DNA of 64,000 bases from an uncultured virus (IMG/VR IMGVR_UViG_3300033153_010090) (lineage: Duplodnaviria; Heunggongvirae; Uroviricota; Caudoviricetes), in the IMG/VR virus record IMGVR_UViG_3300033153_010090. The stretch is one strand, 5' to 3'. Positions 1,148 through 36,622 of the stretch are shown piece by piece; positions within the stretch are counted from its first letter, which is position 1; each line of letters starts with the position of its first letter. Both the position numbers and the translations under genes were made by a program. A model generated the notes under the pieces. It saw only the letters and a program-made list of their open reading frames with translations, had not been told where the DNA came from and did not search any database.

Positions 1148-2299
1148 TTACGCAGTAAAGCTCTTGGTGCTGAGGAGCATGGGCAACTGACTAGCCACGC
1201 TCGCTAGACCCGGGGCAGCAATGACCGGGGCCGGCGCACCTAAAACGACCTGGGCTGTGGGGCAAACAAAAGTACTGATCTGTGCGATGAGACTGGAAAG
1301 CACGGCTACCAACTGGTCACCATGGACCAATGGGTGGGCAGCAGAGGGCCCACCCAGATGAATGGTTGCTCCGTCGATGAACATCTGGGCCGCAGCCTCC
1401 AGTGTGGCGGTGGTACCCGCCTTCAAGTTCACGTCGAGGTCGCTCTCAATGGAAGCAGACTGGGCCGATCTGTAACTCATCGTCCCGCCAACTTCCGTGC
1501 TGTGGTTCCCGTCGATGGTCTCAGTCCGGTTCCCGTGGACGAGAGAGGTTACATCCTTCTGGATCTCCCAGTTGACATTCCCCTCCTTGGTGATCTCTAA
1601 ACGCACCATAGTGTCCGCGTCCGCAGCGCCAGATGCCTTCACCAACATGTTCAGTGTAGTCTGGCTACCCTCCCCATGGGAACCAGCGGTCAGTTCGACG
1701 ATGTGCTCCTTATCGTTGGCCTTCTCCTTCACCAACAACGAGAACTTTGTCATGACGTCGCCGTCGGTGGTCTTCTCCGTCCGGTCCGCAAGCCAAGTCA
1801 GCTCCCCACCGAAGGTAAACAGCTGGTAGTTCTCACAAAAGTCACGAATGAAGTTCTGGATCGGGATGTACATTCGTTGTGCAGCGGAGGTCGCCCCAAT
1901 CTGCACGCCACCACCGCGGCGGAGGATGATGAAGTTCTCATCCCGAGTCTTCATCATCATGTCGCCCGGGTTTAACTGTGCACGATTCGAGGCGAAGTTG
2001 TCATTGTCTTCATCGTGTGGAGCCTGGAAGCCCAGGATGAATGGCACAGCGTGGAGACCCTCACTGGGGGTACAAACCCACACCAGCGCACCTATTTCAG
2101 GCACCGCATAGATGCCCTCGCCGTTGGTGTAGTGGAGGTAGGGGGTCATGATCTGGATGTCGAAGTACTTCTTGTCGCCATGCTCGGAGATGGCGTCGAC
2201 GGTCCAGTCCGCAATGTTGACGTTCGTGATCCTACCGGTCTCCACGACCGGTGAGATAAACTTGGTGTCCTGAATACCACGCGTCATCAGTACAACCAC
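1148..2299 (-). CDS. Baseplate central spike/hub protein (gp5/GpV-like)
   Basis: N-terminal OB-fold-like segment (VPEIGALVWV), beta-strand repeats (HGNRTETIDGNHSTEVGG), C-terminal HLGG..AHPLVHGDQL typical of contractile-tail spikes. Confidence 0.65.
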   Translation of the reverse strand: MVVLMTRGIQDTKFISPVVETGRITNVNIADWTVDAISEHGDKKYFDIQIMTPYLHYTNGEGIYAVPEIGALVWVCTPSEGLHAVPFILGFQAPHDEDNDNFASNRAQLNPGDMMMKTRDENFIILRRGGGVQIGATSAAQRMYIPIQNFIRDFCENYQLFTFGGELTWLADRTEKTTDGDVMTKFSLLVKEKANDKEHIVELTAGSHGEGSQTTLNMLVKASGAADADTMVRLEITKEGNVNWEIQKDVTSLVHGNRTETIDGNHSTEVGGTMSYRSAQSASIESDLDVNLKAGTTATLEAAAQMFIDGATIHLGGPSAAHPLVHGDQLVAVLSSLIAQISTFVCPTAQVVLGAPAPVIAAPGLASVASQLPMLLSTKSFTA

Positions 2300-5200
2300 G
2301 GAGCTTGCTCGGTCCCGAGACCGAACTCTTTTCCGTAAGCCATGCCCGGGATGGGGTGCCTGCTGTGGATGTTGGACTTCCAGCCCTGGGCTGCACCATC
2401 TTCCAAACTGGTCTTCAACCTCGTGGCCTGCATTCTGGCCAGCCAGTCCGTCTGCATCTCCAGCGGCATGATGTTGACCCCCTTCAGGATGGGCGTGTGC
2501 TGCACAGGCTTCTTACCTGCTGAGAGTTTACTGTTGAAGCTGTTGATCTCCGAGGTGGCTGTGGTGTCTCCCCTCAAAAGCCCGTAGTGGGAACCCGGGT
2601 CGTTCACCGCGCTGAGGTTGGTCAGTGAACGGACCACCACCTCCGCGTTCCTGCGATGGAGGGGGGTCTTCTTGTTGTAGACCGCCACGATCTCGTCGGT
2701 CAGGTACCGCTGCACGGAACCGATGCCGGTGAGCGGAAGCATGTGACGGGGGTTCTTCGGACCAGACGACAGGGCGTCCCCCCGCTTCACTGCCTGTCCT
2801 TGCTTCACCGCCAGCTCGTTTCGGCCTGGAACAAAGTGGCGTTGGCCACCCACCTGCACATTCCAGCCACCAGCTGGGTCCTTGTCGACCTTCTCGATCT
2901 TGCCGGCCATGGTGGATAGCGTAGCCGCGCCGGCGACCTTCTCTGGGAGCTCGACCAGCTGCTTCAGCCTATCGAACTGCCCAACTGCGTGGGCGCTCTT
3001 CGACCCAGCGACACCACCCTCGTGGAAGGAACGGAGAACCAGCTGGGTGGTGGGCTCGCCGAGGGCCTGGGCTGCTTTGATCCCGACGTTGTCCCCCTTG
3101 GGAAACTGCTGACCGTCCTCATTCAGACCCATGCACTTGGCACAGATTCCCGAACCGTGGGCGCACTTCAACGGCGTCCGGACAGGAATCTCCTTCACCT
3201 TGTTGTTCTTGAGCCGGGTCATCACCTCGGGAGTCACCAGGGTGCCCGCCGGGATCTTCCCCTTGTCCTTGCCCCCCTTCACCCCGAACCTTATCTCCTT
3301 CGTGGTGAAGCGATCCAGCGCGTTGGTATCGTCTACGCCGAAGGTGATGCCCTTGGACGTCTCGCAGTCATCGGCGGTGACCACCTGGTTGATGGCCGTG
3401 TTGATCATCTGCTTCGAAAGAGCACCAGGCAGCTCAGTGCCTCGTCCCTTACCGATCATACCCATGCGAGCACCGTGCATGGCCGTCCAGTACTGACCTG
3501 CCGACAGCCCCTCGGAGTAGGACTTGGTGATAGGCACGGGCACCGTCTTCCCCGAGCTGTCGAGCACGAGCATGGGAGCGATAGCGAGCTGCTTAAACTG
3601 GTCCCAGCTTCCACGGGAGCCGGACTTCACCCAGTCATACATCCGGTTGCCCGAAGTCTGCATCTGCTTCTTGGTGCGGTCCGAGATGACCTCGTCAGCC
3701 TTTGTGTACAGCTTGATGACAGCGTCGTTCTTTTGCTTCTTCGTCATCTTCGACGACCGGATCTTGGTTTCGGTCGCCTTGGCTGACCGAAGAACTCGGT
3801 CCCGCTCTGTACGGTTGGGTGCGAAGTCCTCGAGCCCCATGGAGAACCCAGTCGCGTACTCGTTTCCAAGGTCCTTCAGATTGTCAGTGGTCTGAGCGTA
3901 GTCTCCCTTCTTCTTGCGAGCCACCTCAGACAGCTTCTTGGAGAGAACACTCTTCGTCATCTCGAACTTAGGATCTGTGAGCATCTTGCTGTCGCGTACT
4001 TCTTCCGGCAGTGAGTTGTGAAGAAGAAGCCGACCCACCGTAGTCTTCACCGGTTTGGCTGCGGTCTTCACAATGCTCTTCGGGTCCTCGATCTTCCCAC
4101 TTATGTTCTTGATGGTGACCACATCGGTCATGTCAATCTTGCCGAGGTGTGCAGCCTTGGCGGCCTCCGCCGGAGTGGCGAAGACATGCTTGGTCTTCTT
4201 CCCCATCTGACTCAGCTTGAAGATACCGAGAGCGGCCTCGTGGTCGGGCTTGTAGGCAATGTCACCCCACGACTGGCTGAACAGATTGTTCGAGGGGAAC
4301 ATCTTGTGAGCTTCCTTCACCGCCGCAGGGGTGACAGGAACAAAAGCGCTCATGGTGTCGCCGTCAAAGTCTGCGTTGTACCCCGACGTGACGAGCGGGT
4401 GAATCTTGATGGTCTTCCCCTCTACCAACTGCGGACGGAAGGCCTGCACACCCTGCTTGTGCAGCACCGGGTCACGCTTCAGAAGGACAGGTCGGTTCGA
4501 TGCTTCGATCTCGAGCGCGCGCCGGGCGGTCGGTGAGTCTTCCTTGATGTGCTTCTGCGCCTCCAAAGGAGAAAGACCCATCCTCACCATCCGAGCGACG
4601 GTGAAGGGCTTGTACATCTCAGAAGCCGCCTTGCGGGGGAGGCCCACCTCATCCAGATTGAGCGTGGGGTCCGGCACAATAGTACTGCGCATCGACATGT
4701 CTTGCCGACGGCCGATCACCTTGTCCTGGAAGAAGCCCAGCTTCGGTGGCTTGCCCCGCGGCCCTGCGATCTGTTCCACGATGCCGGAACGATGCCGCCG
4801 CTTGTAGGTCATGCCCGTAAGATTCAAAGCCTTCAAGCCATCGTACAACTCATTGACGAGTGGGTGCCTCTCTTCCTCTGGCATACCCTTGTCGAAGGTC
4901 TTCAACTGGTGGTTAGGAGCACCAACGCCCCCTGCATAGATGCCGTTCAAGTCTGCTTCGTTGAGGTCACCATTAGGCATCACTGAAATAGGCCGCATGT
5001 TCGCGGGCAACACGGGCACGTACTTCATCGTGTAGGCCTCCTTCGGGGAGAGGCCTGCGGTCTTCAGTGCACGGAGAAATTTAATCTTCTTGTTGGCGGT
5101 GTCGAGCTTGGCACCACGAAGATCGGCGACCGAGTTCTCCAACGAGCCCAGATCCTTCTCCACATCGATCTTGGACAGAGCACTCACAACGGCCTTGGCA

Positions 5201-8200
5201 CTTGTCTTCCCCTCGATCTCGACCTTACCCTCCATCACGCTACCGAACTCCTTTGTGTTCAGCCCAAGCAGAGTCCGTACGGGCTTCTCGAAGGTGGGGT
5301 TGGGCATGCGCTCGGAGAGCTTGATGTGGGCCCACTTGTCACCGAACCGACCCTTAGGCCAGCGGGTACCAGTAACAACGGGGTCGAAGAGACCATCCTT
5401 CTCCGGGGTCGCATCCTTGGCGCGCAACCGCCGGCCCGGGTCTTTGATCTCCCCGTTACTCAGGGCAAGTGTGCCCTTGTCAGTAAGGGGCTCAAGCACC
5501 AAGGAGTTGCCGTCCTTCTTCACGTTAACGCCGGCGCCCCGGAGCATGGACTCGAACTTCTTGTAGACGAAGGGAACCCTGGGTGGAGGGATAGGCTCAC
5601 CCGTCTGCATCTTTGCCCACAACTCGTCGTTCATGTCCGACTTGATAGTCTGCATCTCCCGAACGTTCGCGGTCGCACCGTGAGCTAACAGAGCGTACAT
5701 GCCGCTAGCGTCCATGGACTGACCCCCGTGAGGGCCACCGCGCTGTGGCGTCATGTTCCCCGTGTAGGTATCGCGGGAGCGAGCGGACAGCTTCTTCTCC
5801 GCCGTGTGGTGGAGCTTGAGAATGTACTGCTTGCCCGCCAGCACCTTCTCCTTGAAAGGCTTCTTGGTCTGTGGGTCGAACATCTCCTCGGTAGCAGAGA
5901 GTCCGTGTTGCTTGAGCTCCGCCATCACCTTCGCCGCCTGGTCAGGGACATCAGGGTCGAAGTTGTTGGTGGCGTAGATCTTACCCGTCTTCTCCGCGAT
6001 CTTTGATGCTGCGGTCTCGAACGCCTGACCAATGTTGATGCGGCCCGGAATACCAGCGGGGTTCAAGAGAATCTCGGCAGCGGTCCCGTCTTTGAACGTG
6101 GGCATCTCAACGTCGGCCAAGACAGAGGTGACGATGCCCTTGTTACCGTGCCGGCCGACTACCTTGTCTCCTACCTCGGCGGGGGTCTGGGTCTTCACAT
6201 AGACCGTAGTGTCCTTGCCATGCTTCACGACCTTGGAGACCATGCCCGGGTAGTCCTTCTCCCAGGTCTGCGGCCGGGCACGAACCGGCTTCGCTGCCTT
6301 GCGGGAGAAGAGAGCGAGCTGCTTCTGCTCGGGGGTGAGTAGTTCCTTCTTCAGCTCACCAATGAGAATGTCCCCGGACTCTACGAGTTGGCCAGGCCTG
6401 ACGACTGCATCGTCGTCCAACTTGTCAGCCTGTGCCCTGGTGACCTTACCTGCAGTCTCCGCCAAGAACTTCCTCTTGTTGAGGATGGTGTTCTCATCGG
6501 AGCGGGTGGCCTGGCGGTGAAGGTGCTCGGAGGTGAGCTTCTTGGCCGCAGTCTCCGAAATGACGATGCCGTCCTCGAAGTTCAGCCCCTTCCAAGGCAT
6601 GTACGCAGTGCGCAGGTTGGTGCCCAGGGATAGTGTTCCGTCCCTGGTGAAGGATGTGTCGGCCACAGTCTGACCAGGCTTCACCTTGTCCCCCTTCTTC
6701 ACCAGGGGGGTGGAGTTGACCACGCTCTTGTCATCGTTCAAGGGGAAGTCGTCGTAGAGCTGCACCTCATGGCGCTTGCCCTTTCCATCCTTGACCATGA
6801 TGCTCTGCTTGCCTACGCGCTCGATGGTGCCAGCGACCGGGGAGTGGTGGGCACTGAGCATACCCACAGCCTTCTCGAACGTGCTGCCACGGTCACCGCG
6901 GGTCTGAACCAACGGCTGCTCTCGGTGGACCAAAGGCACGGCCTGCTCAAGCTGACGAGAGGCCACCATGCTCCGGTTGCCCTGGTCGTTCTGCAGGAAG
7001 GGCACCATGTTGGAAGAGACGTCGTACATCCCCTTGGTAGAGTCGAAGACGTAGTCCACCTTCTTCGGATCCAGCAGCATCATGTCACCGCCGGTCTCCA
7101 CAGCCTCCACCTGCTTGGAGCGCGGAACGAGCTTCCCATTCACCTTCTTGAACTGATCCGCGAAGGCGATGTTCGCATTGAGGGCGGCGCCCGGGCCAAC
7201 CATCTCCTTCTTCCCTGTCTTCAAGTTCACGAGGGGGATCTTCAGGTCCTGCCCCACCTTCCGTGCCCCCGAGGAAAGCTGGGTCACTGCACCAATGCGC
7301 TTCCCCTCAGGCGTGTGGACGGGGTCCAGGAATCCAGTGTGACTCGGGTTGATCGACTGAGCAGCGAGAGTGATCCTCCGCTCTGAGTCGATACCATGCT
7401 GCCCGAGGATGGTGGTCTTCCGTGCGCCGACCAAGAACCCCACAGGGTTACGTTGGTCCGACCGCTCCGAGAAAGATGAGTTGGTGAAGAACGATTTGAC
7501 TGGCTTGCCGAAGGTGTCCGGCGTGACGATGTCGGTGACCTTGTCCTTGCGGTCAATGTTGTTCTTCAGCTTCCTCGAGATGTCGTAGCGAGCGTCCTTG
7601 CTCAGGCGCTCCTGCATGAGGTCCTCGGCCGACCACAGCGCCTTGAACTCTAGAGAGTCCCGGTCGTCAGGCTTGTCCTCTTGGCGGGACACCCGCAGCA
7701 ACTTGCCTGCCCCACTGAGCAGAGCTTCACCGGACACCTTGTCGAAGGGCTGGCCCAGCGTCTTGGCGGTGGTGTCCTTGAGCAACTTCGTGTTGCCGAA
7801 TGTCTCCTTCACGTGGCCACGGATCTCATCCAGGTTATCCGAGGTCTTCCCCGTCATCGCCTTGTAGAGCTTGCGGAGGGCCTGGCCTTCGTTGACGTCC
7901 TTGTTGGCCTCGAAGACCTCCGACCCCCAGGTCTTCTCCATAGCCTTGTCGTCCACACCCATAGCCTTGAGCACCGGGTAGACGGGGACGTTGGAGTGGT
8001 TGTAGCCCAGGGTCATCTGCCGCTTGGCAGGATTGAAGTCCATGTCGAACCCCAACCCTTCGGCCAGGTTCCACTGCGACGACAGCTCACCATTGTCCTT
8101 AACCCGAGTGTAGACCCCAGATTTCAGACGGAACTGATTGCCGACCTGCCACTCGTTGCCATCCACGATGTGACTGTAGCGGCGTGTGATCTTCGGTAAC

Positions 8201-8472
8201 TGAGCAATCGTGACTGTCTTGGCATCCTTCACCTTGCCGGTCGCCTTGTCACGGAGCTCGACCGTGGCCTTGACCGGAACAGTCCAACTACGACCCTTCA
8301 GCCGCGCGTCTTGCTGGCCGCGGATGTCGTCGATGTCCTTGTTGTCCTGGACGGTGACGTTCTTGATGGTGAGGGTATTCTTGGACCCCTCAACGGGGAA
8401 GTGCCCCTTGACCGCTTCAACCGTTCTCTCTTTCAGGGTCTCAAAGGCATCCTCTGGAGCGAAGTGAGCCAT
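2287..8472 (-). CDS. Single-polypeptide DNA-directed RNA polymerase, fused beta + beta-prime
   Basis: Beta motifs HTPEGKRIG, GLNFEDGIVIS, GDKVVGRHGNKGIV, YILKLHH; beta-prime motifs GRRQDMSMRSTI, KRDPVLH, NADFDGD, CAHGSGICAKC, AAQALGEPTTQLVLRSFH. Confidence 0.97.
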   Translation of the reverse strand: MAHFAPEDAFETLKERTVEAVKGHFPVEGSKNTLTIKNVTVQDNKDIDDIRGQQDARLKGRSWTVPVKATVELRDKATGKVKDAKTVTIAQLPKITRRYSHIVDGNEWQVGNQFRLKSGVYTRVKDNGELSSQWNLAEGLGFDMDFNPAKRQMTLGYNHSNVPVYPVLKAMGVDDKAMEKTWGSEVFEANKDVNEGQALRKLYKAMTGKTSDNLDEIRGHVKETFGNTKLLKDTTAKTLGQPFDKVSGEALLSGAGKLLRVSRQEDKPDDRDSLEFKALWSAEDLMQERLSKDARYDISRKLKNNIDRKDKVTDIVTPDTFGKPVKSFFTNSSFSERSDQRNPVGFLVGARKTTILGQHGIDSERRITLAAQSINPSHTGFLDPVHTPEGKRIGAVTQLSSGARKVGQDLKIPLVNLKTGKKEMVGPGAALNANIAFADQFKKVNGKLVPRSKQVEAVETGGDMMLLDPKKVDYVFDSTKGMYDVSSNMVPFLQNDQGNRSMVASRQLEQAVPLVHREQPLVQTRGDRGSTFEKAVGMLSAHHSPVAGTIERVGKQSIMVKDGKGKRHEVQLYDDFPLNDDKSVVNSTPLVKKGDKVKPGQTVADTSFTRDGTLSLGTNLRTAYMPWKGLNFEDGIVISETAAKKLTSEHLHRQATRSDENTILNKRKFLAETAGKVTRAQADKLDDDAVVRPGQLVESGDILIGELKKELLTPEQKQLALFSRKAAKPVRARPQTWEKDYPGMVSKVVKHGKDTTVYVKTQTPAEVGDKVVGRHGNKGIVTSVLADVEMPTFKDGTAAEILLNPAGIPGRINIGQAFETAASKIAEKTGKIYATNNFDPDVPDQAAKVMAELKQHGLSATEEMFDPQTKKPFKEKVLAGKQYILKLHHTAEKKLSARSRDTYTGNMTPQRGGPHGGQSMDASGMYALLAHGATANVREMQTIKSDMNDELWAKMQTGEPIPPPRVPFVYKKFESMLRGAGVNVKKDGNSLVLEPLTDKGTLALSNGEIKDPGRRLRAKDATPEKDGLFDPVVTGTRWPKGRFGDKWAHIKLSERMPNPTFEKPVRTLLGLNTKEFGSVMEGKVEIEGKTSAKAVVSALSKIDVEKDLGSLENSVADLRGAKLDTANKKIKFLRALKTAGLSPKEAYTMKYVPVLPANMRPISVMPNGDLNEADLNGIYAGGVGAPNHQLKTFDKGMPEEERHPLVNELYDGLKALNLTGMTYKRRHRSGIVEQIAGPRGKPPKLGFFQDKVIGRRQDMSMRSTIVPDPTLNLDEVGLPRKAASEMYKPFTVARMVRMGLSPLEAQKHIKEDSPTARRALEIEASNRPVLLKRDPVLHKQGVQAFRPQLVEGKTIKIHPLVTSGYNADFDGDTMSAFVPVTPAAVKEAHKMFPSNNLFSQSWGDIAYKPDHEAALGIFKLSQMGKKTKHVFATPAEAAKAAHLGKIDMTDVVTIKNISGKIEDPKSIVKTAAKPVKTTVGRLLLHNSLPEEVRDSKMLTDPKFEMTKSVLSKKLSEVARKKKGDYAQTTDNLKDLGNEYATGFSMGLEDFAPNRTERDRVLRSAKATETKIRSSKMTKKQKNDAVIKLYTKADEVISDRTKKQMQTSGNRMYDWVKSGSRGSWDQFKQLAIAPMLVLDSSGKTVPVPITKSYSEGLSAGQYWTAMHGARMGMIGKGRGTELPGALSKQMINTAINQVVTADDCETSKGITFGVDDTNALDRFTTKEIRFGVKGGKDKGKIPAGTLVTPEVMTRLKNNKVKEIPVRTPLKCAHGSGICAKCMGLNEDGQQFPKGDNVGIKAAQALGEPTTQLVLRSFHEGGVAGSKSAHAVGQFDRLKQLVELPEKVAGAATLSTMAGKIEKVDKDPAGGWNVQVGGQRHFVPGRNELAVKQGQAVKRGDALSSGPKNPRHMLPLTGIGSVQRYLTDEIVAVYNKKTPLHRRNAEVVVRSLTNLSAVNDPGSHYGLLRGDTTATSEINSFNSKLSAGKKPVQHTPILKGVNIMPLEMQTDWLARMQATRLKTSLEDGAAQGWKSNIHSRHPIPGMAYGKEFGLGTEQAPWLY

Positions 8473-8576
8473 CTTATCCTCCGAGCTTCGTCTTCAGCAG
8501 CGCCAGGCCGCCTCGAACCTCAACGTAAATCGTAGTGTCCTCAACCTGTTGCGGTCAAATAGAAACGCAATAATTC

Positions 8577-8584
8577 GGTATAAG
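8577..8584 (+). promoter_or_regulatory. GGTATAAG motif, putative phage promoter
   Basis: Same octamer lies in intergenic DNA upstream of five plus-strand transcription units. Confidence 0.55.
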
Positions 8585-8622: not shown

Positions 8623-8796
8623 ATGCCTGACACCTTCGACTGCGAATGGGAACCCCGAGATGTGTCCGACTGGTCCAGCGAGTCTTACCAGGAATTGTTC
8701 AGCGATCATCTGGATGATAACCTGATTGGAGGATGGGATGTGGATGACTCCAACGAGGGGTGCTACTCCCAGACAGGACCCGAAGGCGAGCAGTGA
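8623..8796 (+). CDS. Small acidic early protein (57 aa)
   Basis: GAGGAG RBS + ATG; MPDTFDCEWEPRDVSDW...EGEQ; 17 D/E versus 1 R and 0 K. Confidence 0.5.
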   Translation: MPDTFDCEWEPRDVSDWSSESYQELFSDHLDDNLIGGWDVDDSNEGCYSQTGPEGEQ

Positions 8797-9562: not shown

Positions 9563-9570
9563 GGTATAAG
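9563..9570 (+). promoter_or_regulatory. GGTATAAG motif, putative phage promoter
   Basis: Upstream of AAAGGAGGCCATTATG of the Myg1-like gene. Confidence 0.6.
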
Positions 9571-9604: not shown

Positions 9605-10456
9605 ATGAAGTATGCAGTCACGCACAAGGGTAAGGCGCACCGTGACGAGGTGCTCGCTGTGGGCCTGGCGCTCTACGCCGGGGTCATCACCCTGACCACG
9701 AAAGTCTTCCGGCGCGACCCGACGCCGGAGGAGCTCGAGGACCCCGAGGTTCTCGTGTTGGACGTCGGAGAGAGGCACGACCCCGGTCGTCAGTGCTTCG
9801 ACCACCACCAGCTCCCCCGGGGCACGCGCGACTGTGCGCTGTCCTTGCTGGCCCGTCACCTCCAGGTCAAGGGTAGGGAGCCCCTGACCTTCCACGAGCT
9901 GTGGAGCGACCGTCCCTGGTATCGCTTCACAGTTGGTCTGGACAGCCTTGGCCCATTCGTGGTGGCCAAGGAGCTCGGACTGGAGGAGCTCCCCCCGGAG
10001 CTCAACTCTCCATTCGAGTTGACCATTCTCGACGCGGCTGAGAACTCTTCGGAGTTCGATGAGGTCGTGAAGTTGATGGCATTCCAGACCATCGGTGGGC
10101 GTGTGGAGGACGCGCTGAAAATGCGCGACCGCCTCACGTGGCTTCAGCAGAACGCAGAGCTCCTCGTGATCAACGGAGTGAACATCCTGCTCATCGGGGC
10201 AGATGACACCTTCGGAGTCAACGAGTACCGCTCGCGCCTGCTGGCCGAGGGTGTCGAGATCGCGGCGTCGGTCAGTCACGACGACCGCGGCACTGGTTTC
10301 GCTCTCTACAGGTTCGCTGACCACCCTCGGGTGGACTTCAGTCGGATCGAGGGCGACACTGGTGTGTTGTTTGCTCACAAGGGTGGCTTCATCGCCAAGA
10401 CCCATGGGCGCAACCTCGACGATGCCCGCCGCCTCCTCGCCGCCTCCATCATCTAA
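9605..10456 (+). CDS. Myg1-family (DHH superfamily) metal-dependent hydrolase/exonuclease
   Basis: THKGKAHRDEV, LDVG..HDP...FDHHQ, FAHKGGFIA; strong RBS at the 9605 start. Confidence 0.85.
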   Translation: MKYAVTHKGKAHRDEVLAVGLALYAGVITLTTKVFRRDPTPEELEDPEVLVLDVGERHDPGRQCFDHHQLPRGTRDCALSLLARHLQVKGREPLTFHELWSDRPWYRFTVGLDSLGPFVVAKELGLEELPPELNSPFELTILDAAENSSEFDEVVKLMAFQTIGGRVEDALKMRDRLTWLQQNAELLVINGVNILLIGADDTFGVNEYRSRLLAEGVEIAASVSHDDRGTGFALYRFADHPRVDFSRIEGDTGVLFAHKGGFIAKTHGRNLDDARRLLAASII

Positions 10457-10525: not shown

Positions 10526-10533
10526 GGTATAAG
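10526..10533 (+). promoter_or_regulatory. GGTATAAG motif, putative phage promoter
   Basis: Upstream of AAAGGAGGCCATCATG of the CCA enzyme gene. Confidence 0.6.
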
Positions 10534-10556: not shown

Positions 10557-11918
10557 ATGGTGGTTCCTGGGATTGTTGAGCGCATTGTGGCGCTCGTTGT
10601 CGCCGCAGGTGGAAAGGCACTGCTCGTTGGGGGAGCGGTAGTTGATCATCTGCAGGGCCGTGAGCCCAAAGACTGGGACATTGAGGTGTACGGTCTGCCC
10701 ATGTCCCGGGTGGAACAGTTGCTGACCGAGGCCGAGCTCAACCCGAAAGCTGTCGGGAAGGAGTTTGGCATCCTCAAGATCGGTGGGGATATTGAGGTGG
10801 ATGTCTCCGTCCCCCGCAGGGAGAACAAGATCGGGAAGGGTCATCGCGACTTTGCGGTGGAGCTCGACCCGAACATGACTCCCAAGGAGGCCGCTCGCCG
10901 GCGCGACCTCACGATCAACAGCATCGCCTATGACCTCAGTACGGGAGAGGTCATCGACCCCTGGGGCGGTGTTGAGGATCTGAAGGCCGGCATCATCCGC
11001 GCCACGGACCCGGAGACCTTTGTTGAGGACCCTCTCCGGGTCTTGCGCATCATGCAGCTACTCCCTCGCAAGGGGGACTCACTGGACGCTGCCACTCTTG
11101 GGCTGTGCAAGCGGCTTGAAGGTGAGTTCCAGAACCTCTCCCGCGAACGTGTGTTTGTGGAGTGGGAGAAGCTGCTGCTCAAGGCAGAGAAGCCCAGCAT
11201 TGGGCTGACCTTCTTGAGGGCGTGCGGATGGATCAGACACTTCCCTGAGCTCGCGGCACTCGTGGGCTGTGCGCAGCACCCGGAGTGGCACCCGGAGGGA
11301 GATGCCTGGCAGCACACCTTGGTGGTGTTGGACAACGCGGCCAAGGTGAGGGGCCAGCTGCCTGAGGAGTGGCGCCTCGGGTTCATGTTCGGAGCTCTGC
11401 TTCACGATGTGGGTAAGCCCTCCACCACCCTGGAGGACTTCACCAGTCGTGGTCATGACGCGGCGGGGTTGCCACTCGCTGAGGGGTTCATGAAGAGAGT
11501 CACGAACAGCAAGTCCCTACTCGAGCAGGTCGACAGCGTCGTTGGGCAGCACATGCAGCCCGGCAACCTCGAGCGGGGCAACGCCAAGGCCTCTGCCTGG
11601 CGCCGGCTGCAGAACAAGCTGCGGCTGGATGTGCTGGGGTGGATGAGCTTGTGCGACTGGGCTTGTGTCCCAGGCCGTGATGTTCTCGCGTCGAACGACC
11701 ACAAGCCCAGCAAACTGTGCTGGAAGTGGTTCGAGGACTTGGGAGCCACGGCTGAGAAGATCGAGTCTATCCTGGGAGGGAAGGACCTGGTCGCCGCTGG
11801 ATACAAGCCGGGCCCTGCGTTCGGGAAGGCTCTCCAGAAAGCCTACGAGGCTCAGATGGAGGGGATCACCAACCGGGGTGAGCTGCTTGCTATCGCAATC
11901 GAAGACCTCATCGCCTGA
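10557..11918 (+). CDS. cca: Class II tRNA nucleotidyltransferase (CCA-adding-like) with HD domain
   Basis: VGGAV.D...DWDIE, RRDLTINS, EDPLRVLR, HPEGD..HT, LLHDVGK, PGP.FG. Confidence 0.9.
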   Translation: MVVPGIVERIVALVVAAGGKALLVGGAVVDHLQGREPKDWDIEVYGLPMSRVEQLLTEAELNPKAVGKEFGILKIGGDIEVDVSVPRRENKIGKGHRDFAVELDPNMTPKEAARRRDLTINSIAYDLSTGEVIDPWGGVEDLKAGIIRATDPETFVEDPLRVLRIMQLLPRKGDSLDAATLGLCKRLEGEFQNLSRERVFVEWEKLLLKAEKPSIGLTFLRACGWIRHFPELAALVGCAQHPEWHPEGDAWQHTLVVLDNAAKVRGQLPEEWRLGFMFGALLHDVGKPSTTLEDFTSRGHDAAGLPLAEGFMKRVTNSKSLLEQVDSVVGQHMQPGNLERGNAKASAWRRLQNKLRLDVLGWMSLCDWACVPGRDVLASNDHKPSKLCWKWFEDLGATAEKIESILGGKDLVAAGYKPGPAFGKALQKAYEAQMEGITNRGELLAIAIEDLIA

Positions 11919-11961: not shown

Positions 11962-11969
11962 GGTATAAG
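11962..11969 (+). promoter_or_regulatory. GGTATAAG motif, putative phage promoter
   Basis: Follows a hairpin-TTAGC and precedes AAAGGAGGCCATCATG. Confidence 0.6.
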
Positions 11970-12477: not shown

Positions 12478-13247
12478 AGAGCGACGAGCTCGCCCTTCGT
12501 AGGGGAGGGATTTGAAGCGGGGTCAACTACTCGACGGCGGGCGCGGTGGTACAAGCTGGTATCCAACATACGGAGCCCAGCATCCTCTGCGTCCGCCTTC
12601 GGGTACGCGAGGGTCTTGTTTTTAGCCCTGGTCGCAGTGTCGAGGATCGCAGTGTCCGCAGTAGGTAGCGAGCCAGGTGCAGCTTCACGAACGAGCTGCT
12701 TACGCTTCTTCCCTGGGTTCGCCTGCTGCAGTTTCGCGATAGCCTCATTACGAGCTCGGTTCAGCTTGTACCCCTGAGGCCCTGAGACCACCGCCCACGG
12801 GGCAACATTTCCGGTGCGGATATTTCTCGACAGCGGCATCTTGTCAGCCAGGTGTTCCAAGTTCGTTGCAATGCCCTCGTCCTGCAACCCGCCAAGGTAC
12901 TTCTTCTGCTGAGGGAACCCCCTCCACCAGTACACACCGGGGCCATACTGAGCTTTCTCCAAATCTCCAGCAGGCGACGGCCGTATGAACCGGACAGTAT
13001 CGTCACCTCTCTCAACCCCCTCGAGGATGCCCTCCATGTTCTTTGGAGACGTGCCGTGTAGTGCATGCCCTTTCGTCGGAACAAACCGGCCCCCGATGGT
13101 TTCACCGCGCTTTTTGTTGAGCGCAACGCTGCGGCGAGCTTTCTCAAAACCCTCAGCAGCGCGGCGGTACTGCTTCACCGCCCCATGAACTCTGGCTATC
13201 TTCTGAAGCTCATCGGTGAAGGCGGAGAAAGTGGTCGTGTTCATCAC
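12444..13247 (-). CDS. Putative virion internal protein with ADP-ribosyltransferase-like motifs
   Basis: N-terminal AFTDELQKIA motif; LHGTS...IL...RPS...YGPGVYW resembles H-Y clade ART motifs; translationally coupled to the portal gene. Confidence 0.5.
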   Translation of the reverse strand: MMNTTTFSAFTDELQKIARVHGAVKQYRRAAEGFEKARRSVALNKKRGETIGGRFVPTKGHALHGTSPKNMEGILEGVERGDDTVRFIRPSPAGDLEKAQYGPGVYWWRGFPQQKKYLGGLQDEGIATNLEHLADKMPLSRNIRTGNVAPWAVVSGPQGYKLNRARNEAIAKLQQANPGKKRKQLVREAAPGSLPTADTAILDTATRAKNKTLAYPKADAEDAGLRMLDTSLYHRARRRVVDPASNPSPTKGELVALYKRRLKGIER

Positions 13248-15127
13248 ACCGCCTGTGCTTCGGGACCTCGGCGGGCAGGACGCTGTTCAGGCTGCGGCAT
13301 CTCTGCTGAGTTCACGTGGGCGCCTGCGCGCTGCTGCATCATCTGGCTGACGATGTGGTGGAGCTGTGGGTTGTCCCGCTGCATTTGCGTCAAGACGTTG
13401 GCCTTCTCCGCGTCGGGCTTCTGATCCAGCCACCCAGCAACTCGCTCTGCGACCGCGCCCATGTCCTGCGCACCGCCACGCGGAGCCTCAGCAAGCTGGG
13501 ACTGCGCGTCCGGGATGGGAGGCTCTGGTTGGGGTGGCGCCGCCGGTGCTGGTGCCGGTTGCTGCATCTGCATCATCGCCTTCTGACCTCGCATCTGGTA
13601 TTTCTGCATGACGAGCTGGGCTTCACCCTGAATGGTGGCCTGAGCCAGCGCCGTACGCCGCTGGGCCTCCATCGCCCTCTTCTGCTCCTCCATGATGCGC
13701 GTAGTCTCTTCGGTCGAGTCCCAGTCCACCTCCTCCAGGAGGGCCTTGTCGCTGAGCTTGTTCGCCTGGTTGAGCTGCATGAAGAAGGCCGACCGCTGCA
13801 GGTCGTCCGCCATCTTGAACTTCTTGAAGTGGCAGGGAGTCGCGGGCCAACCCATGAACGCCGAGATGGCGGGCATGATGAAGTTGGTGACCATCTTCAG
13901 GTGGTTGCTGCGATCCTCGATGAAGTGGTTCTCGAGCATCCGCATACTCACGTTGGAACCAGAGTAGCTCATGCCTCCGAAGGCGAACTCGAGCGGGACA
14001 CCCATACCGGTGACGATGTGGTCCGCCCAGATCTTGTACTCCTGTGAGAGCGACAGCGCCCGGCCGTCGCCGCCCAGGGTCTGCTGACCCATCGGCAGAG
14101 GGAGCAGGGGGATGTAGTTGTTGTCCATGCGCCAACGGAGGATCTCCCGTTCAGCAGTCTCCTTCCAGTCGGAGATGTTGACCGTGGAGAAGACGTCTGC
14201 ACTGGCCGCCGAGGTCTGTGGGAACAGGATGCGCAGCGGCACAATGTGCTCGACCGCGATGGCTTCCTGAGCCTTGCGCAGGATCTGCAGGTAGAAGGTG
14301 TCCTTCAGGACCGGCAGGATCATCGGCAGGCCCCAACCCTTGTCCTTCTGGGCGATGGTGGGGCGCTTGCGATGGAAGAAGTTGTTCGGGTTGAACCGGA
14401 CCGACTTGTTCCTGGACGCAGCCTGGATGAAGATCTGCGGGATCTTCTCGATGATAGACCGCTTGGCCATTCGAATGTCGTTCGAGAGCGTGGCCGGGAT
14501 GTTGTAGAAGTACTCGCTCTCACCCGTGACATCGTTGTGCACCACGGTCACGTTCTCCGGGTTCCACCTGATGAGGCGGATCTCTCGGTAGGAGCGGATG
14601 TGGATGTCCTTCACCTTGAACGAACCGTTGTAGCCACACGAGCACGAGCCGTGGAACTTGAAGTCACGGAATTTGTAGTTGCGGAACTTGTCGACCCGCG
14701 TTTCCTTCTTGCACTTCGGGCAGATGAGCCACTTCCGGAAGGGGAAGAAGATCGAGATGAAGCTGTTTCCGTAGCAGTAGTAGTCGAGGCCCGACTCCAC
14801 CCTGAACATCTTGAACTGCAACGTGTTGTCGAAGAAGTCTTCCCAGCGGTTCTTCAGATTCGAGTTGCTCGAGTCGATAACCAGGTCGGTCACCGGGTAC
14901 TCGGACATCTTCCAGACGACGTTGTTGATGATGGGATTCGTCAGGAAGTAGAACCGGCACCACCGCAGCATGCTCTTGTAGCTGCTGGGTAGATACATGT
15001 GGGCGATGTCGAAGAAGGGGGATGGGTAGCGGAGCGTACCAAGCGCCTGGCTGGTCAGGTTTCGCCCTGAGTTGCCGGCGAAGCTGGCACCACCAGAGGC
15101 ACCGAACTGCATGGAAGTAAGGCTCAT
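13244..15127 (-). CDS. Portal protein (with inserted Cys4 zinc ribbon)
   Basis: NPII..VV, DYY.YGNSF, WNPENV, FFH...GWGLP, IVTGMGVP..F...SYS pattern and Q/P-rich tail typical of phage portals. Confidence 0.75.
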   Translation of the reverse strand: MSLTSMQFGASGGASFAGNSGRNLTSQALGTLRYPSPFFDIAHMYLPSSYKSMLRWCRFYFLTNPIINNVVWKMSEYPVTDLVIDSSNSNLKNRWEDFFDNTLQFKMFRVESGLDYYCYGNSFISIFFPFRKWLICPKCKKETRVDKFRNYKFRDFKFHGSCSCGYNGSFKVKDIHIRSYREIRLIRWNPENVTVVHNDVTGESEYFYNIPATLSNDIRMAKRSIIEKIPQIFIQAASRNKSVRFNPNNFFHRKRPTIAQKDKGWGLPMILPVLKDTFYLQILRKAQEAIAVEHIVPLRILFPQTSAASADVFSTVNISDWKETAEREILRWRMDNNYIPLLPLPMGQQTLGGDGRALSLSQEYKIWADHIVTGMGVPLEFAFGGMSYSGSNVSMRMLENHFIEDRSNHLKMVTNFIMPAISAFMGWPATPCHFKKFKMADDLQRSAFFMQLNQANKLSDKALLEEVDWDSTEETTRIMEEQKRAMEAQRRTALAQATIQGEAQLVMQKYQMRGQKAMMQMQQPAPAPAAPPQPEPPIPDAQSQLAEAPRGGAQDMGAVAERVAGWLDQKPDAEKANVLTQMQRDNPQLHHIVSQMMQQRAGAHVNSAEMPQPEQRPARRGPEAQAV

Positions 15128-17846: not shown

Positions 17847-17931
17847 CGGAGGTCTCCGTTTCGGTGGGCCATTTATCAGGCTACCGTCGCTGATCTCGCC
17901 TGGTCAAGAACGAAAATAACACGAACGCGCC

Positions 17932-17939
17932 GGTATAAG
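17932..17939 (+). promoter_or_regulatory. GGTATAAG motif at the head of the replication operon
   Basis: Divergent intergenic region, followed by AGGAGG RBS. Confidence 0.6.
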
Positions 17940-28542: not shown

Positions 28543-28939
28543 CCCAGTTGCCTACGGCTGTGCTGAGTGCGGCACCATCTTCACCACCGCGGTGATGGTG
28601 TGTCCATGTCCGGTACCGGAGACACACCATTGTCCTACTTGTGGCAGCACGGCCACGGAGCTGGGGCCAACCCCTCAGATCACCCGTGACGACGACGGGT
28701 ACTACCTCGTAGTCGCAGAGCGCGCGATGGGGCCGTACACAACCGCTAGCACAGCGCAGCTCAACCTGTGGGGCTGGTTCGGAGGGAGACCTGATGGCAA
28801 TCGCCTTGAAGAAGGGCGCCAAGAAGGCGGCCAAGAAGACTGTGAAGAAGTCTGTGAAGAAGAGTACGACGAAGGCTACTACCAAAGCCTCAGGCTCTGG
28901 CAGCGCCAAGGGGTCATCGTCCCCGAAGGCGAAGCCTAG
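28535..28939 (+). CDS. Hypothetical zinc-ribbon protein
   Basis: CAEC, CPTC; 3' end overlaps recA by 146 nt. Confidence 0.5.
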   Translation: MSNPVAYGCAECGTIFTTAVMVCPCPVPETHHCPTCGSTATELGPTPQITRDDDGYYLVVAERAMGPYTTASTAQLNLWGWFGGRPDGNRLEEGRQEGGQEDCEEVCEEEYDEGYYQSLRLWQRQGVIVPEGEA

Positions 28940-30131
28940 CAAAGCAGGGAGTGAGGCTCAGCGCTGGGTCGAGCGCATCCAGAAGGAGAAGAAGCTGGAG
29001 GGGAAGGCCCAGGTCATCATGGCCTCGGAGGTCATCACCCCCTACCATCTGCGCCGGCCGACTGGTATCCCCAGCTTGGACATCGCCATGGGTGGTGGAC
29101 TGCACGCTGGGGGTGGAATGGAGATCCACGGGACGGAGTCCGTGGGCAAGACTCACTTGGCCTACTGCATCGCCGGGCAGGTACAGAAGAATTACGGGGA
29201 CAAGGCTGCCATCCTCATCTTCTGCACTGAGATTCGTCCTGACGTGAGCTACGCCCGATTGTCTGGGTTCCAGATGGCGTACAGCGACAAGGCCATCGAA
29301 GAGCTGGACTCCATCCGTCAATCTCAAGGGCTCCCTGGGTTCACCCCCGAGGAGGTCGAAGACCTCAAGTCTCAGATCGGGGAGGTGGTGGTGGTCACAG
29401 CTTCCACGGCCGACTACGGCCTGGACGTGATCATCAAGGCGCTCGAGGCCGGCTTCTTCCAGCTGGTCATCATCGAGTCCTTGGGCGCGTTCCTGACACA
29501 ACAGCAGGAGGGGAAGGACACTGGCGAGCGCACGGTGGCTGGACCAGCGATGATGGTCACCACGTTCCAGAACAAGGTCTACCCCCTGTTCATGATGGAC
29601 CGGTCTGATGGATCTCTCTTGGAGACCACCATCATTGGTGTGAACCAGGCGCGGGCCAACGTGGGCGGCGGGCCGAAGGCCCCCAAGACCCAGGCTGCCA
29701 TGGGCGCCTTCTCCTGGAAGCACGGTCAGCTGCTCAGCGTAGAACTACGCAAAGGCGTCGCGCTCAAGAACAGCAAAAAGCAGGACATCGGCCGAGAGGT
29801 TGGCTGGAAGCTCAAGAAGGGAAAGGCCGGCACACATGACGGACTCAGTGGGACCTACCACTACTTTCACATGAAGCGGATGGAGCCTGTGTTCTGGAAG
29901 GATGTCCAGACCACCTTCTTCGGCGGCGTGGATGAGGTTCGAGACCTTGTCGACGCAGTACTCGAGGTGGGCGCTGTCGAGCGGGCTGGTGCTTGGATTC
30001 GCTTCGGTGAGAATGGCAAGTGGAACGGACAAGAGCCCTTCTTGGAGGCTGTCGTTGCCAGCGAGCAGCTACAGGCTGAGCTACGCGAGGCCCTGGTCAA
30101 GACTTCCGGACTCCTTGTGAGGTACTCCTGA
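28794..30131 (+). CDS. recA: RecA/UvsX-like recombinase with Lys-rich N-terminal tail
   Basis: TGIPSLDIAMGGG, GTESVGKT, NQAR, AGAW. Confidence 0.92.
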   Translation: MAIALKKGAKKAAKKTVKKSVKKSTTKATTKASGSGSAKGSSSPKAKPSKAGSEAQRWVERIQKEKKLEGKAQVIMASEVITPYHLRRPTGIPSLDIAMGGGLHAGGGMEIHGTESVGKTHLAYCIAGQVQKNYGDKAAILIFCTEIRPDVSYARLSGFQMAYSDKAIEELDSIRQSQGLPGFTPEEVEDLKSQIGEVVVVTASTADYGLDVIIKALEAGFFQLVIIESLGAFLTQQQEGKDTGERTVAGPAMMVTTFQNKVYPLFMMDRSDGSLLETTIIGVNQARANVGGGPKAPKTQAAMGAFSWKHGQLLSVELRKGVALKNSKKQDIGREVGWKLKKGKAGTHDGLSGTYHYFHMKRMEPVFWKDVQTTFFGGVDEVRDLVDAVLEVGAVERAGAWIRFGENGKWNGQEPFLEAVVASEQLQAELREALVKTSGLLVRYS

Positions 30132-34862: not shown

Positions 34863-34948
34863 TGGCAGAGGGTAGAGGAGTCGAACCCCCAACCTTTCGG
34901 CCGCCCCGGTTTTCGAGACCGGTTGCCACCCACGTAGCAGTACCCTCT
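34863..34948 (-). tRNA. tRNA-Ser(CGA)
   Basis: Cloverleaf, loop CT-CGA-AA, long variable arm, GCCA. Confidence 0.9.
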
Positions 34949-34953
34949 TCATA

Positions 34954-35025
34954 TCGGGGTGGGCGGGTTCGAACCGCCGACCTCTCGGTCCCCGACCGAG
35001 CGCCCTACCACTGGGCCACACCCCG
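34954..35025 (-). tRNA. tRNA-Pro(GGG), C33, no encoded CCA
   Basis: CGGGGTG acceptor, loop TC-GGG-GA. Confidence 0.88.
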
Positions 35026-35090
35026 TTGTCGCTCACTGACCTCCTTCTCGTGACACACAAACCTCGTTGTTGCTCACCAGTGATCAGCTA

Positions 35091-35164
35091 TCGGGATGGT
35101 GGGGCTCGAACCCACGACCTCCGGCTCCCGAAGCCGGCGCGCTACCAACCTGCGCTACATCCCG
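35091..35164 (-). tRNA. tRNA-Pro(CGG), no encoded CCA
   Basis: Loop TT-CGG-GA. Confidence 0.92.
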
Positions 35165-35241
35165 TGGTCGGAGAGACAGGGATTGAACCTGCGACCCCCG
35201 GCTCCCAAAGCCGGTGCTCTACCAAACTGAGCTACTCTCCG
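35165..35241 (-). tRNA. tRNA-Pro(TGG)
   Basis: Loop TT-TGG-GA, ACCA. Confidence 0.95.
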
Positions 35242-35245
35242 ATAA

Positions 35246-35337
35246 TGGCGGAGCGTGAGGGATTCGAACCCCCGCGACCCGTGAAGGCCGACCTCGGGTT
35301 AGCAACCCGGCGCTTTGCCAGACTCAGCCAACGCTCC
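35246..35337 (-). tRNA. tRNA-Ser(GCT)
   Basis: Loop TT-GCT-AA, long variable arm, GCCA. Confidence 0.92.
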
Positions 35338-35343
35338 GTAGGA

Positions 35344-35454
35344 CTAGAGCGCTGGCGTACTCGGGGGTGGGTACGAGGAGGATGAGGGCGAGGGCAGACG
35401 ACCGGCGTTGAAGTGGTCGACAAAGAACAGAGCTGCCATCGTGTAGCGGAACAT
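35344..35454 (-). CDS. Leader peptide of tRNA unit 3 (MFRYTMAALFFVDHFNAGRLPSPSSSSYPPPSTPAL)
   Basis: AGGAGGG RBS; 12 of the last 16 codons are Ser/Pro; stop lies 6 nt before tRNA-Ser(GCT). Confidence 0.8.
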   Translation of the reverse strand: MFRYTMAALFFVDHFNAGRLPSPSSSSYPPPSTPAL

Positions 35455-35474
35455 GATGTTCCCTCCTACCTTTC

Positions 35475-35502
35475 AGTATCGGCATCTCCGTCGAGATGTC
35501 AA
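35475..35502 (-). promoter_or_regulatory. Sigma70-like promoter of tRNA unit 3
   Basis: TTGACA-N16-GATACT. Confidence 0.7.
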
Positions 35503-35510
35503 CAAGAAAT

Positions 35511-35586
35511 TGGGGTGACCGACGGGGTTTGAACCCGCGACCTTCCGGGCCACAGCCGGACGCTCTACCACTGAGCTACGGCCACC
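35511..35586 (-). tRNA. tRNA-His(GTG)
   Basis: Loop CT-GTG-GC, G-1 encoded, CCCA. Confidence 0.95.
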
Positions 35587-35589
35587 ACA

Positions 35590-35666
35590 TGGTGATGCCG
35601 ACCGGGCTTGAACCGGCTCTCACCGGCTTGAAAGGCCGGCGGCTCGACCCCTTCGCCTTCGGCACC
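35590..35666 (-). tRNA. tRNA-Glu(TTC), atypical D arm
   Basis: Loop CT-TTC-AA, A at position 8, ACCA. Confidence 0.8.
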
Positions 35667-35669
35667 ACA

Positions 35670-35745
35670 TGGTGGAATCGGAGGGACTCGAACCCTCGAC
35701 CCCCTGTCTGCCAGACAGGTGCTCTCCCAGCTGAGCTACGACCCC
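35670..35745 (-). tRNA. tRNA-Ala(GGC)
   Basis: Loop CT-GGC-AG, G3:U70. Confidence 0.95.
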
Positions 35746-35746
35746 A

Positions 35747-35856
35747 TACCGACCCGTTGACTTGGCTGCTGGCTATTGGCACCGCGCACGGGTCAACACG
35801 CGCTACCGGACCAGCAGTTGCCCCTCCGCTCCTGTTCGCGACCAAGAGCTTCGGTA
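35747..35856 (-). ncRNA. Unclassified structured RNA (~110 nt) between two tRNA-Ala genes
   Basis: Nested pairings TACCGA/TCGGTA, CTTGG/CCAAG, CTGCTGG/CCAGCAG, GCGCG/TGCGC. Confidence 0.45.
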
Positions 35857-35934
35857 TGGTGGACGGGAAGGGATTCGAACCCTCGACCGGCTGGGTGCAA
35901 ACCAGCTGCTCTCCCGGACTGAGCTACCGCGCCC
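35857..35934 (-). tRNA. tRNA-Ala(TGC)
   Basis: Loop TT-TGC-AC, G3:U70, one bulged acceptor base. Confidence 0.9.
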
Positions 35935-35937
35935 ACA

Positions 35938-36012
35938 TGGTACTCGTGGCGGGAATTGAACCCGCGTTACCGGCGTGAGAGGCCGGCGTCCTTACCCCTA
36001 GACGACACGAGC
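35938..36012 (-). tRNA. tRNA-Glu(CTC)
   Basis: Loop CT-CTC-AC. Confidence 0.93.
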
Positions 36013-36036
36013 ACAAACCTTGATCAATCCCTCCTT

Positions 36037-36112
36037 TGGAGCTGGTGAGAGGACTCGAACCTCCAACCTGCTGATTACAAATCAGCTGCTCTACCAGTTG
36101 AGCTACACCAGC
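36037..36112 (-). tRNA. tRNA-Thr(TGT)
   Basis: Loop TT-TGT-AA, TCCA. Confidence 0.95.
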
Positions 36113-36115
36113 ATG

Positions 36116-36180
36116 CGGGGAGCACGAGGATCGAACTCGCAACACCCCCGGCCCAGGGCGTTACCCCTAGCGGACTCCCC
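36116..36180 (-). ncRNA. tRNA-like RNA without a canonical anticodon loop
   Basis: Acceptor GGGGAGT/GCTCCCC, T arm GCGAG-TTCGATC-CTCGT, anticodon arm reduced to CCCT-GGGCC-GGGG. Confidence 0.6.
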
Positions 36181-36184
36181 GAAC

Positions 36185-36260
36185 TGGAGCTGGTGGAGGG
36201 AGTCGAACCCCCGGCCTGCTCATTACGAGTGAGCTGCTCTACCTACTGAGCTACACCAGC
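36185..36260 (-). tRNA. tRNA-Thr(CGT)
   Basis: Loop CT-CGT-AA. Confidence 0.95.
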
Positions 36261-36458
36261 ATCGCCCTTTCTGTTCTCCAAGATTCCTTTGCACGTCTTG
36301 CACGTCACTTCGCCGTCGTGTCTGGTGTGAGTGATGTATGTCTTCCAATCCAACACGATCCCACACAAAGTGATGTCTGCATCTTCAGACCCATGAGACG
36401 GACCGTACAGGGTGTCTTCTTTTGCTCTCACCCTTCGGACTGTATACCGCACATTCAC
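36243..36458 (-). CDS. Small zinc-binding protein (71 aa) inside the tRNA array
   Basis: AAGGAGGG + GTG; H...TLCG...VTCKTC; stop lies inside tRNA-Thr(CGT). Confidence 0.65.
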   Translation of the reverse strand: MNVRYTVRRVRAKEDTLYGPSHGSEDADITLCGIVLDWKTYITHTRHDGEVTCKTCKGILENRKGDAGVAQ

Positions 36459-36469
36459 AGCGCCCTCCT

Positions 36470-36545
36470 TGGAGCTGGGGACCGGGTACGATCCGGTGAC
36501 CTCTCCCGTACCAGGGGAGTGCTCTACCAACTGAGCTACCCCAGC
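36470..36545 (-). tRNA. tRNA-Thr(GGT)
   Basis: Loop CT-GGT-AC; T loop ATCGTAC. Confidence 0.92.
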
Positions 36546-36548
36546 ATA

Positions 36549-36620: not shown

Positions 36621-36622
36621 AC

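Follow-up and report, generated by a model that had tools for sequence, protein, structure and literature searches.

The virion RNA polymerases of phages phiKZ, AR9 and SPN3US, as described in two published accounts (PMC7598289, PMC10052503), serve the early genes without alpha or omega, and these phages cut their head proteins with a prohead protease, there after A-x-E; four to five highly divergent subunits, two enzymes per genome and no recognisable sigma factor complete the picture. The mReC enzymes of Weinheimer and Aylward 2020 (PMC7481178) likewise belong to tailed phages, can be aligned to cellular beta and beta', carry NADFDGD and lie outside the bacteria, and beta and beta' were separate proteins in all 90 mReC rows examined. 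crAss-like phages and N4 each package a single large chain for the early genes, the N4 chain being T7-like, and no use of a sigma factor is reported for either enzyme in the texts compared. Here we analyze a fused beta-beta' RNA polymerase gene from an uncultured tailed phage, IMG/VR record IMGVR_UViG_3300033153_010090. The window is the first 64 kb of this 134,485-bp linear virus record, a fragment estimated to be about 70% complete.

Compared with the phiKZ type, this phage encodes a sigma70-family factor and a single chain that shares about 31% identity with its E. coli counterparts, has K-x-A as its likely cleavage motif, and shows none of the phiKZ/AR9-type traits (four to five subunits, two enzymes, no sigma) in the part of the genome present. 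The subunits of mReC are separate genes in the rows examined, whereas this phage has a single chain, and the crAss enzyme shows no match to the COG0085/0086 profiles. Like the bacterial sigma70 holoenzyme, the present enzyme has the catalytic core, the second zinc site, the flap tip and the clamp helices, and its sigma contains regions 2-4, but it is without alpha, omega and the zinc-binding domain, its rifampicin pocket is altered, and owing to large deletions the chain measures 2061 aa against 2749 aa for E. coli beta plus beta'. The closest cultured phages by polymerase are Salmonella phage Arash (OQ632216; PMC10585845) and Vibrio phages D69, D181 and D148, whose polymerases are orthologous at 32.7% and 25.7% identity. 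The Arash enzyme has the same beta-beta' join and the same loss of the zinc domain, and it falls into one clade with this phage; the sigma factor is orthologous at 31% and the portal at 32% identity, and the GGTATAAG box and the K-x-A-rich head proteins described below are shared. The difference is that Arash and D69 carry a second sigma and split beta' into two genes at a loop, giving a chain of approximately 1525 aa with beta plus half of beta' and a remainder of approximately 606 aa, both without the zinc domain, whereas the present chain is continuous and has a K-x-A loop at that place. The Arash paper (PMC10585845) names the two products Gp206 "beta" and Gp216 "beta-prime", and its main text contains neither "promoter" nor "rifamp". 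A literature search, with most subscription papers outside its reach, found neither the fusion nor the box nor the K-x-A code described. Judged by its sequence, the enzyme is real and family-wide, a variant among the phage multisubunit polymerases.

When aligned to the E. coli K-12 subunits, residues 1 to approximately 990 correspond to RpoB (30.6% identity over 965 pairs) and residues 986-2061 to RpoC (32.4% over 1051 pairs), which bears out an earlier note, made from the letters of this DNA, in placing both barrel motif sets on one 2061-aa chain in cellular order. The features of a bacterial-type two-barrel polymerase, the beta barrel lysines and the beta' NADFDGD, are present: K770 and K778 (K1065 and K1073 in E. 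coli), E633-D634 and NADFDGD at 1366-1372 are retained, as are the bridge-helix region and H1817 of the trigger loop (E. coli H936). The chain contains exactly four cysteines, at 1703, 1770, 1777 and 1780, equivalent to beta' C814, C888, C895 and C898, while C70, C72, C85 and C88 have no aligned residue. The same note was thus right that the N-terminal zinc-binding domain of beta' is lost and that the second zinc site, bridge helix and trigger loop are kept. A short loop takes the place of the lost domain, and the AlphaFold2 model is confident there. Flap tip and clamp helices are retained, the latter strongly unlike those of E. coli. A Foldseek search with the predicted structure matched bacterial beta' only, with a poor global fit (root mean square deviation ~20, predicted template modelling score 0.50). 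On these alignments the gene encodes a bacterial-type RNA polymerase that has been trimmed and unites beta and beta' in a single chain.

A protein search with the polymerase gave 716 matches at E <= 1e-50, and the best 120 of the 716 were analyzed. Identities for the other 119 of these lie between 44 and 67%; both motif sets occur in a single chain (strict pattern) in 112 of the best 120, 89 of the best 120 are 2000-2130 aa long, and K770, K778 and D1368 are invariant in all 120. An assembly artefact or chance read-through is rejected by these 112 single chains. In a partly redundant set of 189 relatives the zinc gap is free of cysteine in 188. Lengths above 2200 aa are seen in 29 of the best 120 homologues (for example P0003, P0015, P0030 and P0046), and many over-long homologues have LAGLIDADG or intein Pfam domains, some being without an intact ADFDGD.

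All four substitutions read earlier in rifampicin cluster I (Table 1) are correct by alignment to E. coli RpoB, and the pocket shows L511F, S522G and R687E in addition. Among the 189 relatives, S531T is found in 187, R687E in 172 and H526G in 158, while the wild-type residue is retained at R529 in 63, at D516 in 74 and at Q513 in 23. As far as the alignments go, the pocket changes are old and family-wide, and a rifampicin adaptation special to this phage is rejected, the changes being spread unevenly over the family. The fusion, the zinc loss and the altered pocket characterise a large phage family and are not peculiar to this phage. Such pocket substitutions weaken rifampicin binding, and the enzyme is predicted to be insensitive to the drug.

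Phylogenies were calculated with FastTree (82 taxa and 1591 columns after removal of two bacterial loci that were incomplete) and with IQ-TREE on 47 of those 82. In the unrooted IQ-TREE the bacteria form a separate, monophyletic group with full support in the Shimodaira-Hasegawa-like approximate likelihood ratio test (SH-aLRT 100), the mReC-type enzymes form another (SH-aLRT 100), and the fused enzymes together with the Arash group are also separate (SH-aLRT 100, or 96.7 when L186 is included); the mutual order of the three groups is weakly supported (27.7, 62.2). The enzyme does not cluster inside a bacterial rpoBC clade, and a captured host rpoBC is rejected since the trees exclude nesting in bacteria. 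A rank as "deep-branching", the term which the earlier note used for known phage multi-subunit polymerases, finds no basis in these unrooted trees, and the enzyme stands outside the mReC clade. Membership of mReC is rejected by the trees using L200, the sole listed mReC member identified for the comparison, plus 13 similar loci; in L200 and its kin, which group in a clade of their own, the beta' gene precedes that of beta and the zinc motif is mostly present. A sister relation to the candidate phyla radiation bacteria in FastTree (0.955) is not trusted in view of long branches and the missing outgroup. In the one of 64 parts of GTDB that was scanned, only ordinary bacterial genes at 26-33% identity were found. 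L186, a 2325-aa fused polymerase, branches basal to the whole family, and Cobetia phage Carin-5 (L163) and YerA41 (L164) belong to another phage lineage, separate from these, that has beta' ahead of beta and has not lost the zinc motif; Carin-5 has an annotated sigma directly upstream.

The earlier statement that neither alpha nor sigma is in the window holds for the window itself: a PF01000 profile search found no alpha gene on the ~70%-complete linear fragment, whereas a sigma gene lies on the same contig beyond the window (Table 1). It was identified by Sigma70_r3 (E 1.6e-8), a PHROG sigma family and solved sigma70 proteins, and among 50,697 phage records it matched only Arash gp10 and Vibrio D69, D181 and D148. 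A gp10-type sigma is present in all 17 near-complete relatives, and in three loci (L008, L010, L011) it sits 4-5 kb upstream of the polymerase gene. Alpha and omega profiles stayed below the cut-off in 17 of 17 near-complete relatives, with positive controls in 14 of 14. By these profile matches the enzyme is not sigma-less, and the phage encodes its own factor. A predicted complex between residues 590-1300 of the polymerase and the sigma scored 0.73 compared with 0.02 for the best of three controls and placed the sigma against the flap tip and clamp helices, with a contact agreement of at least 74% and a predicted local distance difference test (pLDDT) value for the partner of at least 73; the mark for this score was reached by 116 of 157 solved pairs and 2 of 215 mismatched pairs. 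The score shows likeness, not binding, and in a textbook pair like this one the pass may reflect the predictor's familiarity with such complexes. A second sigma was above the cut-off in four of the 17 relatives, Arash included, and none was found in this ~70%-complete fragment; the second Arash sigma, Gp196, is not mentioned in the main text of the Arash paper (PMC10585845).

The GGTATAAG box occurs six times in the window (0.40 expected by chance) and 13 times on the contig (0.6 expected). Sites of the form GGYATAAG precede a Shine-Dalgarno sequence and an open reading frame (ORF) in 15 of 20 cases, against 13% of random sites, and GG(T/C)ATAAG heads non-structural genes in both this phage and Arash. 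In 70 related loci the box was observed 94 times on the strand opposite the polymerase, where 21.7 were expected, and 11 times on the polymerase's own strand, where 28 were expected, while the control GGYATAAT remained at 15 versus 17.8. Arash carries 30 boxes on one strand and one on the other. The box outnumbered its reversed control in 14 of the 17 genomes of the family and in none of three genomes from outside it. A divergent box within 300 nt upstream of the polymerase gene is found in 29 of 66 loci (background 1.7%). A logo of 100 sites showed AA 17-18 nt upstream of the box (70-73%) and a T-purine step 6-7 nt downstream, and with the numbering taken from that step the layout would be AA(-32/-31)-N16-GG(T/C)ATAAG(-14 to -7). 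The box thus has G at the putative -7 position, not the T of the bacterial holoenzyme, which sigma70 is described as requiring. The Shine-Dalgarno-led ORF behind the first box, at window 8623-8796 (+), encodes a 57-aa acidic peptide and is not the 171-aa ORF at 8726.

On the other strand the polymerase gene and the portal operon are each preceded by a host-type sequence (Table 1). Of 66 loci, 31 carry the pattern TTGnnn-16/18-TAnnnT ahead of the polymerase gene; on the reverse strand 3 of the 66 do so, and in shuffled sequence the rate is 10%. Sites of this kind were seen at four of the six starts checked in Arash and one of six in D69. A polymerase gene with a host-type sigma70 promoter suggests that the phage holoenzyme serves the early genes and the host enzyme the late ones.

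The earlier note had also pointed to an internal VKTAA motif as a sign of virion packaging and processing. The motif is indeed there, as IVKTAA at 1467-1472, in a loop which the structure prediction shows as a low-confidence coil between two strands and which coincides with the gene-split site of the Arash-type relatives. In a survey of 181 usable sequences (8 were dropped as unmappable), all 76 long loops contain K-x-[AGS], and 66 of the 76 the strict form (background 2.7%). After deduplication the long loops (n = 72) form two clades of 64 and 8, and therefore represent at most two independent events. In seven of eight split relatives the first gene has its end at the strand that precedes the loop, and the second opens with TT-x-G or slightly ahead of it, the exception being L168, where the first gene ends earlier. 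Split forms occupy two places in the tree (L168 with the fused L081, versus L016, L017, L206, L209, L219 and L240), and therefore the split at the loop arose, or was undone, more than once.

K-x-A is 4.5-fold denser on the structural strand, with flat R and E controls; in Arash it is concentrated in gp220-225, among them the head protease gp222; 12 of 12 capsid proteins have it close to their N-terminus, and it appears in strict form in 85 of 120 sigma leaders (background 0.3%). Because the motif also marks capsid proteins and the sigma leader, K-x-A is likely to be the site of the head protease. For motif-directed head maturation SPN3US offers a precedent. Arash gp206 (L016:14962) starts MPKSAS and D69 gp261 (L017:11962) MPKKAS, so that K-x-A-S stands at the N-terminus.

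The placement of the gene in a virion block was mostly right: a spike-like gene adjoins it, and an island of genes on the opposite strand lies between it and the portal gene ~4.8 kb upstream. For packaging itself the support is indirect and comes from the K-x-A loop and from Arash, where mass spectrometry of particles (PMC10585845) gave 3516 spectra for Gp206, the top protein, 1210 for Gp216 and 467 for the sigma Gp10. Per residue these amount to 2.3, 2.0 and 2.0, with 1.5 for the portal and 4.3 for the capsid. By analogy with Arash, polymerase and sigma are likely packed in the particle and injected. A head-protease profile matched 11 of 17 near-complete relatives. The phrog_2522 capsid is present in 15 of the 17, and this fragment is without a capsid gene; mReC capsids match PF07068 while that of Arash matches PF05065 weakly. 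A patatin-like phospholipase gene lies on the structural strand at G000:C1:79626-80423 (-).

Taken together, we consider it probable, from these sequences and by analogy with Arash, that the polymerase is made late from host-type promoters, packaged with its sigma, trimmed by the protease, injected, and used for early transcription from GG(T/C)ATAAG. The sequence-level basis is the fusion, the intact catalytic motifs, the loss of the zinc domain and the co-occurrence with a conserved sigma where alpha and omega are missing. Transcription of the polymerase and virion genes would take place late, from host-type sigma70 promoters and probably by the host enzyme. The late genes of N4 are transcribed by the host sigma70 enzyme. 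The prohead would then take in polymerase and sigma, and the K-x-A protease would trim the sigma leader. In the loop-bearing subclades, including this phage, it would also nick the polymerase at about residue 1469, yielding two pieces that correspond to the separate gene products of Arash. Once injected, the holoenzyme, predicted to be rifampicin-insensitive, would transcribe the early and replication genes from GG(T/C)ATAAG.

Several observations weigh against this reading. The loop insert is absent in 104 of the 181 sequences (present in 76, intermediate in one), and therefore internal cutting is not needed; processing at the loop is thus optional at best, and KTAA as a required packaging signal is rejected, the strict motif also occurring in the first 25 residues of 0 of 189 chains. 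The sigma leader of this phage (LIKEAV) fits the loose motif only, and head protease, capsid and terminase genes were not found on this ~70%-complete fragment. The box does not exceed its control in G006, G013 and Vibrio D69 (3 of 17). The sigma70-like pattern was chosen after viewing the data and the loci are related; in seven cases its TT is simply the early promoter AA read on the opposite strand, and on the contig it precedes two of nine minus-strand starts checked, those of the polymerase and portal operons. A second sigma, where present (4 of 17), could serve the late genes. The sucrose-gradient preparation of Arash comprised 116 proteins, primase, ligase and reductases among them, and the authors concede that carry-over may have occurred (PMC10585845).

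In the strongest of the alternatives the enzyme is not a virion protein; polymerase and sigma would be made after infection by the host polymerase from the sigma70-like promoter and would then transcribe the GGTATAAG class as middle or replication genes, with the Arash spectra as carry-over. The host-type promoter of the polymerase gene could fire at once, the replication operon is headed by GGTATAAG, and many non-structural enzymes are in the Arash preparation. We nevertheless regard it as unlikely, since the sigma gene lies among tail genes and carries a head-protein motif, the polymerase is the top Arash protein in the spectra, at a per-residue level equal to that of the sigma, and an early host-type promoter would also switch on the portal operon early.

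A fully autonomous enzyme, which would transcribe the late genes too, through host sigma70 or a second phage sigma, and make the whole cycle rifampicin-proof, appears more doubtful than that. The retained flap tip and clamp helices, the second sigma of some relatives, Arash among them, and growth of phiKZ in rifampicin would agree with it, but 13 of the 17 relatives are without a second sigma and the clamp helices are strongly unlike those of E. coli. If the late genes instead use the host polymerase, growth of the phage would stay rifampicin-sensitive. The slimmest chance is left to a chain that requires host alpha (and omega) in a hybrid enzyme formed in the infected cell, an idea which is compatible with packaging and could appeal to alpha as the assembly platform of cellular enzymes and to the acidic residue at beta D1084, which we take to be an alpha contact and which is mostly kept as E (167 of 189), but beta G1215, presumably an alpha contact as well, is P in 173 of 189, jumbo-phage enzymes function without alpha, and the fusion does away with the joining of two chains.

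Returning to the packaged enzyme, we tentatively put forward, as a possibility that we hold with less than even confidence, a two-gene sigma70 holoenzyme: an alpha- and omega-free chain and a small sigma, co-matured by a lysine-cutting head protease and injected ready-made, blind to rifampicin and reading a promoter unchanged across phages of 41-69% GC, with late transcription returned to the host through back-to-back promoters that share a common -35, and with the cut loop achieving through a protease what split relatives achieve through a gene split of at least two origins. It would be, to our knowledge, the smallest sigma70-type transcription machine. The system makes it testable whether a near-cellular bacterial polymerase is able to assemble and to initiate without alpha and the beta' zinc domain. 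The lineage is large, and the cultured Arash opens packaging, promoter use, drug sensitivity and cleavage to test; an orthogonal set of polymerase, sigma and promoter could also serve as a tool.

Table 1 Features of the polymerase locus in window positions, with the sigma gene in contig positions.
Feature	Position	Strand	Basis or remark
Baseplate hub/spike-like gene, directly downstream of the polymerase gene	1148..2299	-	annotation
Fused beta-beta' RNA polymerase gene, 2061 aa	2287..8472	-	stop-free ORF, 6186 nt, no N
Trigger loop region, H1817 = E. coli H936	2968..3057	-	alignment
Second beta' zinc site, C1703/C1770/C1777/C1780	3133..3366	-	alignment
Optional loop with IVKTAA, aa 1457-1476 (motif 1467-1472)	4045..4104	-	probable cleavage site of the head protease; low pLDDT
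NADFDGD catalytic motif, aa 1366-1372	4357..4377	-	alignment
Deleted beta' zinc-domain site, aa 1026-1052, no Cys	5317..5397	-	pLDDT 88-93
beta/beta' junction, aa 981-995, continuous, without long linker	5488..5532	-	alignment
GRHGNKG motif of beta barrel (K778 = E. coli K1073)	6136..6156	-	alignment
beta flap-tip helix, aa 711-727, predicted contact to sigma C-terminal region	6292..6342	-	alignment, predicted complex
Rifampicin cluster I equivalent, aa 332-357; Q513E, H526G, R529K, S531T; D516 kept	7402..7479	-	
Host-type sigma70-like promoter TTGACC-18-TACGAT before the polymerase gene, predicted late	8529..8558	-	
GGTATAAG box facing away from the polymerase gene, predicted early promoter	8577..8584	+	
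GGTATAAG box ahead of MYG1-family gene (gene ~9605-10456)	9563..9570	+	
GGTATAAG box ahead of CCA-adding/poly(A) polymerase-family gene (gene 10557-11918)	10526..10533	+	
GGTATAAG box ahead of 160-aa gene	11962..11969	+	
Portal protein, Arash gp204 orthologue (32% identity)	13244..15127	-	
Second host-type promoter TTGACC-18-TAGCCT, heads portal operon, back to back with the 17932 box	17878..17907	-	
GGTATAAG box at head of replication operon (helicases, primase, PolA)	17932..17939	+	
sigma70-family gene, 244 aa, Arash gp10 orthologue, N-terminal LIKEA leader	G000:C1:86432-87166	-	beyond the window, among tail genes

Elsewhere on the contig, an array of 38 tRNA genes occupies window 34863-39972 (-), and two RecA-like genes are present, one at window 28794-30131 (+) and the other at G000:C1:112429-113361 (-).

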